From NCBI RefSeq assembly GCF_003334785.1, contig NZ_QOWV01000001.1: a stretch of 64,000 bases of DNA, one strand, 5' to 3'. Position numbers and translations under genes: made by a program. The first letter of the stretch is position 1. Every line of letters begins with the position of its first letter. Below are positions 48,119-52,073 of the stretch, piece after piece. This stretch comes from Escherichia coli. Lineage in GTDB: Bacteria; Pseudomonadota; Gammaproteobacteria; Enterobacterales; Enterobacteriaceae. A model generated the notes under the pieces. That model was not told the origin of the DNA. It ran no database searches and saw only the letters and a program-made list of their open reading frames with translations.

Positions 48119-48972
48119 GCACCATCCTGAAATGGGCGGGAAATAAAACCGCCATTATGCCAGAACTGAAAAAATACCTTCCTGCTGGCCCGCGACTGGT
48201 TGAACCTTTCGCGGGTTCCTGTGCTGTGATGATGGAAACGGATTATCCCAGCTATCTGGTTGCGGATATTAATCCTGATTTAATCAACCTCTATAAAAAG
48301 GTTGCCGCTGATTGTGAATCGTTTATATCTCGCGCCAGAGTTTTATTTGAGATCGCAAACAGGGAGGTGGCTTATTACAACATAAGGCAGGAGTTTAACT
48401 GCTCAACTGAAATTACTGATTTCATGAAAGCGGTATATTTCCTGTATCTCAATCGTCACGGTTACCGTGGTTTATGTCGCTATAACAAGAGCGGGCATTT
48501 CAACATTCCCTACGGTAATTATAAAAATCCGTATTTCCCTGAAAAAGAACTTCGTACATTTGCAGAAAAAGCCCAGCGAGCAACGTTTATCTGCGCCAGC
48601 TTTGATGAAACGCTGGCGATGTTGAAGGCGGGAGATGTGGTGTATTGCGATCCGCCATATGACGGTACGTTTTCCGGCTATCACACTGATGGTTTCACTG
48701 AAGATGACCAGTATCACCTGGCATCCGTTCTTGAACATCGGTCATCAGAAGGACATCCGGTCATTGTTTCTAACAGTGACACATCCCTGATCCGTTCGCT
48801 GTATCGCAATTTTACTCACCACTATATCAAGGTAAAACGCAGCATCGGTGTGGCAGCTGGCGAGGGTAAATCAGCAACAGAAATCATTGCTGTTTCCGGG
48901 CCGCGCTGCTGGATGGGATTTGATTATTCGCGTGGCGTGGATAGTTCTGCCGTGTACGGAGTACGTGCATGA
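48115..48972 (+). CDS. DNA N6-adenine methyltransferase, Dam/D12 class
   Basis: 285-aa product starting [11 protein letters not shown] with SAM-binding FAGSCAV and catalytic DPPY motif; GGAGGTG RBS. Confidence 0.85.
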
Positions 48973-51900
48973 GTCATGCCGATATGAACAACTGCTGCGG
49001 CTTTAACGAGGCTGCCGCAGCATTCTCATGGAACAGCCCGAAAAAGGCCATTAACCCTTATCTGGACCCGGCGGAAGTTGCGCCGGTTTCTACGCTTTCA
49101 AACCTGATCACTCTGTACGCTGCCGATAACGAGCAGGAACAGTTGCGCCGCGAGGCACTGAGTGATCAGGTCTGGGAGCGTTATTTCTTTAATGAATCAC
49201 GTGATCCTGTCCAGCGCGAAATGGAGCAGGATAAGCTCATTAGCCGGGCAAAGCTGGCGCATGAGCAGCAGCGTTTTAATTCAGACATGGTCATTCTGGC
49301 GGACGTCAACGCCCAGCCTTCCCATATCAGCAAGCCGCTGATGCAACGTATTGAATACTTCAGCAGCCTGGGCAGGCCAAAGGCTTATTCCCGCTATTTA
49401 CGTGAGACGATTAAGCCATGTCTGGAACGACTGGAGCATGTACGCGACAGTCAGCTATCTGCATCTTTTCGCTTTATGGCAAGCCATGAAGGGCTGGACG
49501 GCCTGCTGATCCTGCCTGAAATGAGTCAGGATCAGGTGAAACGCCTGTCCACCCTGGTAGCTGCGCATATGAGTATGTGCCTTGATGCAGCTTGTGGTGA
49601 TTTGTATGCCACCGATGACGTTAAGCCAGAAGAAATCCGCAAGACATGGGAAAAGGTGGCAGCGGAAACCCTGCGTCTGGATGTCATCCCACCTGCGTTT
49701 GAGCAACTCCGTCGGAAAAGAAACCGCCGTAAACCCGTGCCCTATGAACTCATTCCGGGTTCGCTGGCGCGTATGTTGTGCGCCGACTGGTGGTATCGGA
49801 AATTATGGAAGATGCGTTGCGAATGGCGGGAAGAGCAGTTGCGCGCAGTTTGCCTGGTCAGCAAAAAAGCATCTCCTTATGTCAGCTATGAAGCCGTGAT
49901 GCATAAACGTGAGCAGCGCCGTAAGTCGCTGGAGTTTTTCCGTTCTCATGAACTGGTGAACGAAGACGGCGACACGCTGGACATGGAGGATGTGGTAAAC
50001 GCCAGCAGCAGCAACCCTGCGCATCGCCGCAATGAGATGATGGCCTGTGTTAAAGGTCTGGAGCTTATCGCGGAAATGCGCGGTGACTGCGCCGTTTTCT
50101 ACACTATCACCTGTCCGTCGCGTTTCCATTCCACGCTAAATAACGGCAGACCAAACCCGACCTGGACAAACGCGACGGTAAGACAAAGCAGCGATTATCT
50201 GGTCGGCATGTTTGCTGCATTTCGTAAGGCGATGCACAAAGCCGGGTTGCGCTGGTATGGCGTGCGGGTGACGAAGGATGCGATGGGAACCATCCAGCGT
50301 GTACTGGAGAAGGTGAACGCACTGCCGCAGGACAAGCGTCTGTCTGCCATGACCATGTTGTTTGGTAAAGAGTTTGGCGATGACGCGGCGAAACTGGCAA
50401 ACAACCTGCCGGAACTACAGCGCCAGCTAAAACTGACAGCGGGCAATGATGCGCTCGGTTCGATGCAGAAAGAATCCGACATCAACAAAGACTCACTTTC
50501 TGCTCAGTGGTTGCTGGTCAAAACCGGAGCGCAGAACACCTTCAGCAGCCTGGGCGAAACGCTGCGCCAGCCGCTGATGGATATTCTGTACACGGTGAAA
50601 AGCGTCACGGGGGCGTTGCGCCGCTGGGTGGAAGCTAACCCGGAACTGACAGGCACACTGATGAAAGTAGTGGCTGTTGTGGCTGCGGTTACCGTAGGCC
50701 TCGGCACCTTAGCGGTGGCGCTGGCTGCAGTGCTGGGGCCGCTGGCAGTGATCCGTCTGGGATTCTCTGTGCTGGGTATCAAAACGTTACCTTCCGTTAC
50801 GGCAGCAGTAACCCGAACCAGCAGCGCGTTGTCCTGGCTGGCTGGCGCACCACTGGCACTGCTGCGACGCGGGCTTGCTTCATCGGGCAACGCCGCAGGT
50901 TTACTTACTGCGCCGTTGTCGTCTTTGCGCCGCACGGCATTACTGACGGGAAATGTCCTGAAAACTGTAGCAGGTGCGCCGGTTGCACTTTTGCGGTCTG
51001 GATTATCCGGTTTACGTGCTGTTGCTGTGATGTTTATGAATCCTCTGGCGGTACTGCGCGGTGGACTGGCCGCCGCAGGCACGGTGCTGCGAGTACTGGC
51101 ATCTGGTCCACTGGCGATGCTGCGCGTTGCCCTGTATGCCGTATCTGGTCTGTTAGGTGCTCTGCTCAGTCCGATAGGTCTTGTGGTTACTGCACTGGCG
51201 GGCGTGGCGCTGGTTGTCTGGAAATACTGGCAACCCATCACCGCATTTCTTGGTGGCGTGGTGGAAGGATTCAAAGCGGCGGCAGGTCCCGTCAGTGAAG
51301 CATTCGAACCGCTTAAGCCCGTGTTCCAGTGGATTGGCGACAAAGTACAGGCGCTGTGGGGCTGGTTTACTGATCTGCTGACGCCCGTTAAGTCGACCTC
51401 TGCCGAACTGCAGAGTGCAGCGGCAATGGGGCGACGATTCGGGGAGGCACTGGCGGAAGGGCTAAATATGGTCATGCATCCGCTGGACTCCCTGAAATCC
51501 GGCGTTTCCTGGTTGCTGGAGAAGCTCGGCATTGTCAGTAAAGAGGCCGCAAAGGCAAAACTTCCGGAAAGCGTGACGCGTCAGCAACCTGCGACGGTGA
51601 ATGCAGACGGTAAAGTGATGATGCCATCGGGTGGTTTTCCATCATGGGGATATGGCTTTGCGGGGATGTATGACAGCGGCGGGTATATCCCGCGCGGGCA
51701 GTTTGGCATCGTCGGTGAAAACGGGCCGGAAATTGTTAACGGCCCGGCAAATGTGACCAGCCGGAGAAATACAGCTGCACTGGCTGCCGTTGTTGCCGGA
51801 ATGATGGGAGTTGCTGCCGCGCCAGCAGAGCTTCCACCGTTGCACCCTTTGGCACTTCCCGCGAAAGGTGGAGAAGCAATTGTGAGTCGCGCAGCCACTG

Positions 51901-52073
51901 TGCCGCCCGTTTACAGGATTGAGGCACCGACGCAGATCATCATCCAGACGCAGCCAGGACAAAGTGCGCAGGATATTGCGCGGGAGGTGGCCCGCCAGCT
52001 TGATGAACGTGAACGCAGGCTGAAGGCAAAGGCCAGGAGTAACTACAGCGATCAGGGGGGATACGACGCATGA
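48969..52073 (+). CDS. In-frame fusion ORF: N-terminal part of phage replication initiator (gpA/RepA-like) joined to C-terminal part of tail tape-measure protein (gpT-like); likely deletion remnant
   Basis: 1034-aa ORF; N-terminal approx. 430 aa carry the rolling-circle motif-1-like [11 protein letters not shown]; the C-terminal half has Ala/Leu/Gly-rich helical repeats and the [21 protein letters not shown] block, then overlaps gpU. Confidence 0.6.

Follow-up and report, generated by a model that had tools for sequence, protein, structure and literature searches.

A replication and tape-measure gene fusion in a P2-like prophage remnant of Escherichia coli

The 64,000-nucleotide stretch of Escherichia coli DNA analysed in this study (contig NZ_QOWV01000001.1, hereafter termed the window) harbours an 11.6 kb prophage remnant between the genes rcdA and ybjL, which extends from a left attachment repeat (attL) starting at 42440 to its right counterpart (attR) ending at 54052. 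Its relationship to P2-like prophages is reflected in an int-CI segment, an early module that leads from cox and cII to the replication gene A, the late activator gene ogr and the flanking att repeats. At the centre of the remnant resides an open reading frame (ORF) of 1034 residues, whose product consists of residues 1-434 of gpA joined in frame to residues 426-1025 of the tape-measure protein T.

The fusion reading frame and its junction

The composite nature of the ORF is evident from a comparison with its intact relatives. Nucleotides 1-1302 are 99.8% identical to the gpA gene of Escherichia phage Cartapus (Peduoviridae, Elveevirus), and nucleotides 1301-3105 share 97-99.8% identity with the 3' part of tape-measure genes from related phages and prophages (both by megablast), with the closest counterpart of the latter part (99.8%) found in an intact prophage of E. 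coli 10034940-2, which adjoins ybjL at the same rcdA/ybjL site. An earlier note on this DNA had proposed such an in-frame fusion for the ORF at 48969-52073, with a junction near residue 430, at 50.2-50.5 kb. Pairwise alignment with both parents bears out this estimate and maps the breakpoint to window 50269/50270, between residues 434 and 435. The sequence of the window across the junction is GGCGTGCGGG-TG-ACGAAGG, where the gpA parent proceeds with TG-GCTGAGCCGCATCATGATGGC (also written TG GCTGAGCCGCATCATGAT) and GAAAAGCAGA-TG-ACGAAGG is found in the T parent. An exact match between both parents is thus confined to the dinucleotide TG at 50269-50270, accompanied by an imperfect homology in six of nine positions (GCGGGTGGC vs GCAGATGAC). 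The site shows the features of a short-homology deletion, namely a single junction with microhomology that links otherwise non-homologous parents and is free of mobile elements.

The same division emerges from profile searches of the two halves. In the N-terminal half, the Pfam family Phage_GPA (PF05840) matches residues 188-435 with model positions 1-244 of 321 only, and phrog_91 of the PHROGs, which is described as 'nicking at origin of replication', is covered from profile positions 16 to 401 of 852. The C-terminal half is matched by tape-measure families of the PHROGs with the C-terminal parts of their profiles only, in case of phrog_5690 up to the profile end. The Pfam search detected no tape-measure domain on the fusion protein and, of a full-length tape measure including its N-terminal domain PF10145, only residues 426-1025 of 1025 are present. 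Instead of being colinear with one protein family along its length, the ORF is thus built of two blocks from different parents, each colinear with intact relatives, that are divided by one junction.

The consequences of the fusion for gpA are illustrated in its alignment with the homologous protein of P2 (NP_046795), a rolling-circle initiator containing the origin of replication (ori) inside its own gene. Both proteins share 31% identity over 633 residues, their motif 1, HUH motif and the tyrosines of the YxxxY motif align, and the nick region of ori is conserved at the nucleotide level. Motif 1 (FxTLT-like), a counterpart of which had been recognised in the earlier note, is kept in the fusion, where it aligns with the P2 sequence FITLTAPSKYH. 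In contrast to P2 gpA, the window ORF leaves the gpA sequence two codons before the HUH motif and lacks the catalytic elements and ori: from codon 435 the parent reads AEPHHDGTVHWH, which contains the HUH motif, whereas the window reads TKDAMGT. The HUH motif of P2 (PHHDGTVHWH) is located downstream of the breakpoint and hence lost, and the two catalytic tyrosines (YIAKYISK, P2 Y450/Y454), which correspond to parent codons 498-502, are equally deleted, as had been suspected in the earlier note. The deletion, which removes the 3' 46% of gpA, also encompasses parent codons 662-686, to which we assign the embedded ori (see below).

The remnant prophage and its decayed relatives

The features of the remnant are compiled in Table 1. 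Its organisation follows two intact relatives, the phage Cartapus (NC_070909), whose early operon through gpA nucleotide 1302 is 98-99.8% identical to the window, and the 10034940-2 prophage (NZ_CP159141), which is 99.75% identical from T nucleotide 1274 to the end of the gene and further through U, D, ogr and attR. Both relatives agree with the window in gene order and attachment site, and attL is also located between rcdA and int in the 10034940-2 prophage. Compared to these relatives, the window has lost the 3' part of gpA with ori, DinI, the accessory genes, cos and the genes Q, P, O, N, M and L, further X, holin, endolysin, LysB/C, R, S, V, W, J, I, H and G, and finally the invertase, FI, FII, E/E' and the 5' part of T. 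The missing interval amounts to ~21.9 kb on the Cartapus genome, where it runs from 30549 to the end and continues from 1 to 19117, and to ~24.2 kb relative to the intact prophage at the same site. One junction between colinear blocks accounts for this loss, in line with the single deletion of the structural, lysis and accessory region that had been claimed for the locus.

The remaining genes closely frame the fusion. The upstream genes for Dam methylase and the TraR/DksA-like protein and the downstream genes for gpU and gpD, which had been recognised in the earlier note, are confirmed by gene calls and Pfam matches; U and D directly follow the T part, with ogr further downstream, and E/E', tube and sheath genes are absent. 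No further phage late genes were detected in the remnant (42.4-54.05 kb) or in the rest of the window, which is E. coli core chromosome, colinear with and 99.99% identical to strain CPE35. Cos, capsid, lysis and complete tail modules, as found in a viable phage, are thus missing. Deprived of the HUH motif, both tyrosines, ori and cos, and of capsid and lysis genes as well, the remnant would be unable to nick an origin, replicate, package or lyse, in agreement with the replication defect that had been predicted for it.

Table 1. Features of the prophage remnant in the window.
Feature	Coordinates	Strand	Evidence
attL, left attachment repeat, core AACAAAAAACCCAT	42440..42465		26-nt direct repeat, 85% identical to 54027-54052
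Phage integrase (int)	42540..43592	-	99.9% to CPE35, annotated WP_000290937.1
DUF4041/T5orf172, 558 aa, PD-Lambda-1 defence gene, prophage cargo	43675..45351	-	PADLOC, E 2.4e-120
CI-type repressor, 198 aa	45372..45968	-	PHROG transcriptional repressor; 'phage repressor protein CI' in CPE35
Promoter-like site TTGACA-17-TAGTAT, 10/12 consensus matches	45962..45990	+	Consensus match only
Early operon: cox/apl-like, cII, fil, DUF5347, DUF2732, TraR/DksA, Dam methylase	46064..48972	+	Pfam on the identical locus L009; CPE35 annotation
Chimeric ORF, 1034 aa	48969..52073	+	Gene calls
gpA (replication endonuclease) codons 1-434, with N-terminal region and motif 1	48969..50270	+	
Deletion junction, TG microhomology	50269..50270		Base-by-base comparison with parents
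Tape-measure gene T, codons 426-1025 plus stop	50271..52073	+	T of E. coli 10034940-2; PHROG
gpU tail protein	52070..52555	+	PF06995
gpD late control/tail protein	52552..53652	+	PF05954
ogr/Delta zinc-finger late activator	53743..53961	+	PF04606; annotation in relatives
attR	54027..54052		Direct repeat with 42440-42465

The promoter-like site overlaps the start of the CI gene and probably represents the early promoter of the operon in which the fusion resides. Between int and CI resides the DUF4041/T5orf172 gene, annotated in relatives as DUF4041 or SNIPE-associated, and this defence gene has been kept although the virion genes were lost. Relatives carry other cargo at the same position or in the accessory locus downstream of gpA, including Panacea-domain, TIR, SIR2, PIN, AIPR and HEPN genes. 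Within the early operon, the fil-like gene (46835-47131) has a length of 98 codons in the window and CPE35, compared to 66 codons in EC05, UMNF18 and Cartapus, apparently as a result of an indel or of different alleles. Outside the prophage, secondary BLAST hits revealed an inverted repeat of ~130 nucleotides and ~81% identity in chromosomal sequence of the window (78-208 and 12092-12218).

Decayed copies of the same prophage family were identified in EC05, MB19/20AR0354, KFu019, CPE35, AST205, S43, F829, UMNF18, FDAARGOS_1250, MS20649 and EC71. As in the window, internal deletions of late genes have left int, CI and the early genes on the left and T, U, D and ogr on the right, whereas the partner or the set of junctions in each copy differs from that of the window. 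At the rcdA/ybjL site, the deletions reach from gpA to LysB in EC05 (with others in addition), from P to E' in AST205 and S43, from N to U in UMNF18 and from Q to D in FDAARGOS_1250, and F829 contains three of them. In EC05, the former late region (locus L005, 11658-13504) has also acquired an insertion of the IS5-like element ISKpn26 and a SIR2-family gene, and there is a second junction from V to T. The relationship to CPE35 is particularly close, since the sequences flanking its prophage share 99.99% identity with the window over 40 kb, yet it carries a different deletion, which extends from upstream of the terminase gene P to the middle of T and leaves gpA intact (L004 17307/17308 vs window 50270, 50895). 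Neither deletion can be derived from the other, and prophage decay has therefore been recent and repeated within one clone complex. Beyond these copies, a search with gpA 1-434 uncovered dozens of fusions of a gpA N-terminus to late genes in public data, with endolysin, sheath, tube, baseplate J, tail protein I, T, D and scaffold proteins as partners.

Recurrent endpoints and the embedded origin of gpA

The gpA endpoint of the window, which follows GGCGTGCGGGTG at Cartapus 30548, recurs with nucleotide precision in three further remnants, joined to another partner in each case. The partner is LysB in EC05 (GCGAGTG^ACGCCG, where the caret here and below marks the break) and the baseplate gene J in a locus of a draft genome (L011; GGATGTG^CCGGAC). 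In MB19, 20AR0354 and a contig from IMG/VR, where the remnant occupies another position in the chromosome, the endpoint is joined to E' (GCCGCTG^ACCGAAG). The four gpA arms differ mutually by 27-46 of 975 nucleotides, which is as much as found between intact phages, and they thus belong to separate phage lineages. The spread of a single ancestral truncated gpA allele by recombination was rejected in light of these diverged arms and the four different right-partner genes. The T endpoint of the window (GCAGATG^ACGAAGG) is equally reused, with a sheath-gene partner in KFu019. Elsewhere in the family, the E' site is found with six different left partners, the endolysin site serves as right partner in two junctions and as left partner in a third, the endpoint at gpA 30159 is used three times, and those at gpA 30526, FI 16681 and FI 16459 are used twice each. 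In an attempt to find further junctions of the form GVRV^non-G, none was detected in metagenome contigs with an exact-sequence pattern or in genome contigs with a degenerate pattern, and viral contigs searched with both patterns contained only one (L008), which is of the MB19 type. A literature search on recurrent breakpoints in P2-like prophages found no relevant report.

The endpoints share a distinct sequence signature. Across 31 distinct sites, G predominates at position -4 (22/31), T at -2 (22/31) and G at -1 (20/31), followed by C at +2 (20/31) and G at +3 (17/31). The resulting consensus G-N-T-G^N-C, best represented by GCGGGTG^, is strand-asymmetric, with the mirror ^CA encountered at 1/31 sites. 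The C at +2 is also found on the deleted side of the left parents, where it is unconstrained by the product (10/15, P = 6e-4). Of the seven GCGGGTG heptamers on the plus strand of Cartapus, three coincide exactly with endpoints, namely those within gpA, within the endolysin gene and within DinI. Hairpins or cruciforms at the hot sites were considered and rejected, as DNA folds of nine sites gave z-scores between -1.5 and +1.3.

We have also investigated the relationship of the gpA endpoint to the origin embedded in the gene. In P2, the nick is placed inside gene A at nucleotide 29892 according to the rep_origin feature of the GenBank annotation, and the Cartapus homologue of the surrounding region (GCGCCCCTTGGACTCGTGGCAATAACTG) is found ~715 nucleotides downstream of the breakpoint. 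Synonymous variation was analysed in a codon alignment of 64 non-redundant gpA genes from IMG/VR, which share 77-98% nucleotide identity. In this alignment, a stretch of ~25 codons (662-686) is devoid of any synonymous variation and constitutes the strongest island of this kind in the gene. It corresponds to Cartapus 31230-31305 (locus L013), coincides with GCGCCCCTTGGACTCGTGGCAATAACTG and is preceded by a GGGCGC..GCGCCC palindrome. Judged from this complete synonymous conservation, codons 662-686 mark what we take to be the embedded origin of the Cartapus-type gpA family, whose location is thereby defined. Codons 428-439 around the breakpoint, in contrast, range between the 48th and 76th percentile of synonymous variation, and in the clade of 78-80% identity the gpA site is recoded to GTC CGC GTT GCA. 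The breakpoint was thus rejected both as nick site of gpA at ori, since the P2 nick maps so far downstream, and as the origin itself, since its codons vary ordinarily where those of the island do not vary at all. The coincidence of endpoint and nick that would characterise aberrant rolling-circle termination at ori (of the Michel-Ehrlich type) is consequently not found.

Two further clusters of deletion endpoints reside in gpA at codons 304-311 and 342-349 (Cartapus 30156-30179 and 30270-30293; ASPY^V and DVV/NAS). Synonymous diversity at these clusters is low, with H of 0.29 and 0.44 compared to a gpA mean of 0.78, and several database proteins contain frameshifts at the former, where CCTTATG is changed to CCTATG. 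Two diverged gpA alleles (L109 2815-2825, L110 1633-1643) contain a stop at codon 436 (GAG to TAG), two codons past the window breakpoint and directly in front of the HUH motif. The two alleles differ in the synonymous codons nearby, and these stops provide another route to a gpA of ~435 residues.

Origin of the deletion and its relation to known systems

Collectively, we regard it as very probable that the region 42440-54052 is a defective P2-like prophage (Peduoviridae, Elveevirus/Wadgaonvirus-type), in which an illegitimate deletion of ~22-24 kb has joined gpA codon 434 to T codon 426. A single short-homology event would have removed the 3' part of gpA, the accessory locus and cos, together with all capsid, lysis, baseplate, fibre, sheath, tube and E/E' genes, most likely upon annealing of the imperfect short homology at the junction after a DNA break. 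The deletion may have been retained because the loss of gpA with its ori and of the lysis genes renders the prophage harmless, and a selection for loss of gpA activity is plausible. The chimeric ORF would then be a by-product without catalytic Rep or tape-measure function, which, together with U and D, is presumably transcribed only from the CI-repressed early promoter on release of CI, since the late promoters from which T, U and D are usually transcribed have been lost with the deletion. There is no indication of a function for the chimera. As the ORF lacks the HUH motif, the tyrosines, ori and the N-terminal part of the tape measure, it qualifies for neither parent family and should be annotated as a pseudogene-type fusion rather than as replication protein or tape measure. 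The fusion is in this respect a case of ordinary cryptic-prophage decay, of the kind seen in many enterobacterial genomes, and the reuse of both endpoints in independent lineages is the one feature that may surprise a specialist.

Several observations weigh against this account. The description of the remnant as dead and of the ORF as a by-product is read from gene content, and the exact microhomology of two nucleotides is about what chance would provide at a single junction. The nucleotide-exact reuse of endpoints is unexplained by a plain random-deletion model, and the truncations at codon 436 leave open whether the gpA 1-434 fragment is itself selected. With respect to the reuse, both endpoints belong to a network of breakpoints that recur in independent remnants, and the break or the join thus appears to be directed by sequence. 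Should a dedicated break-and-join process be responsible, such as the arrest of RecBCD at Chi-like sites, the off-target activity of the HUH endonuclease gpA or a topoisomerase, the decay of this prophage family would be channelled through particular sites instead of being random, a reading that we regard as less likely than not.

Among the specific causes, a resection mechanism appears rather unlikely, although several properties of the sites point in its direction. A break to the right of the endpoint, resulting either from fork collapse at the gpA ori nick or from cutting of cos in situ, would permit RecBCD to resect leftward until attenuated at GCGGGTGG, after which the 3' tail would anneal to similar GCNGNTG heptamers downstream, followed by trimming of the flap and ligation of the ends. 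The gpA site GCGGGTGG matches Chi (GCTGGTGG) in seven of eight positions, and Chi-like octamers are enriched near left endpoints on the plus strand (mean 5.0/8 vs a background of 3.87, P<5e-5) but not on the minus strand, which is the polarity that RecBCD requires. The phage is devoid of a true Chi, the plus-strand GCGGGTG heptamers act as exact breakpoints at the proportion given above, and the partners have G-C-x-G-x-T-G-x-C in common with the gpA site. However, the enrichment test is partly circular with the G-N-T-G motif, no endpoint is known at other octamers in gpA that equally match Chi in seven positions (ACTGGTGG, GCTTGTGG, GCTGGTTG), the site that recurs at Cartapus 30159 (CCTTATG^) does not resemble Chi, and a literature search did not find Chi activity of GCGGGTGG documented.

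A direct role of gpA in generating the deletions seems improbable. As a two-tyrosine HUH enzyme, it would cleave the single-stranded plus strand at pseudo-nick sites (..G-N-T-G^N-C..) and rejoin two of them, thereby deleting the interval on one strand, as in aberrant rolling-circle termination or the excision by IS608 TnpA. Such activity would account for the strict strand asymmetry, with TG^ in 20-22 of the 31 sites, for the base after the break, which always originates from the right parent, and for the ability of the same sites to act as left or right partner (K7497, Rz8240). The predicted nick at ori also follows TG (CCTTG^GAC), and all gpA-side deletions remove ori. Yet the endpoint that recurs in gpA is distinct from the origin and free of synonymous constraint, GCGGGTG^GC bears no resemblance to the ori sequence GCGCCCCTTG^GACTCGTGGCAATAAC, and the sites form no hairpins. 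Moreover, the partners display imperfect homology on both sides of the crossover, which favours the annealing of short homologies after a break and provides a simpler account of their similarity.

We attribute a comparably low probability to a reading in which the chimera or gpA 1-434 would be a domesticated protein under selection, such as a nuclease-dead Rep fragment that interferes with superinfecting relatives. In favour of such a role, gpA is cut at exactly residue 434 in four lineages, two diverged alleles contain the stop at codon 436, the majority of the characterised junctions of gpA with late genes are in frame, and the remnant also carries a defence gene. Endpoints that are identical to the nucleotide, however, go beyond what selection can provide, and recurrent endpoints are also found outside gpA, in E', T, K and FI. 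The excess of in-frame junctions is confounded, as out-of-frame events would be hidden among short truncations, and the exact fusion apparently belongs to one clone: it was found on 13 contigs, and the junction of the window is present in 0 of 5,426 complete E. coli genomes, so that it looks like the marker of one lineage or clone known from draft genomes only, with GCA_012211965.1 among its carriers.

It is still harder to envisage both endpoints as cleavage sites of gyrase (T^G..), joined by subunit exchange. TG is found at nearly all junctions, the sites are usable as either partner, quinolones favour scission before G (PMC6379681), and many carrier strains were obtained from livestock or clinics. 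The symmetric 4-bp stagger of the enzyme, however, predicts G-N-N-C and both resolutions of the overhangs, whereas the data show C at +2 and invariably the base of the right parent. Finally, an assembly artefact or chimeric contig, which was considered as a general possibility only, can be dismissed, since the exact 1034-residue protein is found on 13 contigs of up to 0.76 Mb from independent NCBI and Logan assemblies, the two shared nucleotides at the junction are too short to mislead an assembler and analogous junctions are present in complete genomes.

Beyond the individual fusion, the described remnants capture a single prophage family, residing at a single chromosomal site, at many stages of decay that were reached independently, with endpoints that are far from random. 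They provide a natural data set on what breaks and rejoins DNA during the domestication of prophages, and they offer concrete candidate sequences, such as GCGGGTG^ and GCCGCTG^ACCG, for an involvement of recBCD, gyrase or gpA.

A close parallel is found in the aberrant excision of phage lambda as detected in the Spi- system, for which hot spots are known. Illegitimate recombination that depends on short homology in E. coli, as scored in this assay (PMC3375238, PMC11372144), resembles the remnants described here in junctions with a few nucleotides of homology, which may be imperfect, in preferred sites and in a dependence on the processing of ends, which is presumed for the remnants. Unlike the lambda system, the events described in this study are internal deletions of prophages in natural isolates, and their preferred sites constitute a strand-asymmetric family (G-N-T-G^N-C).

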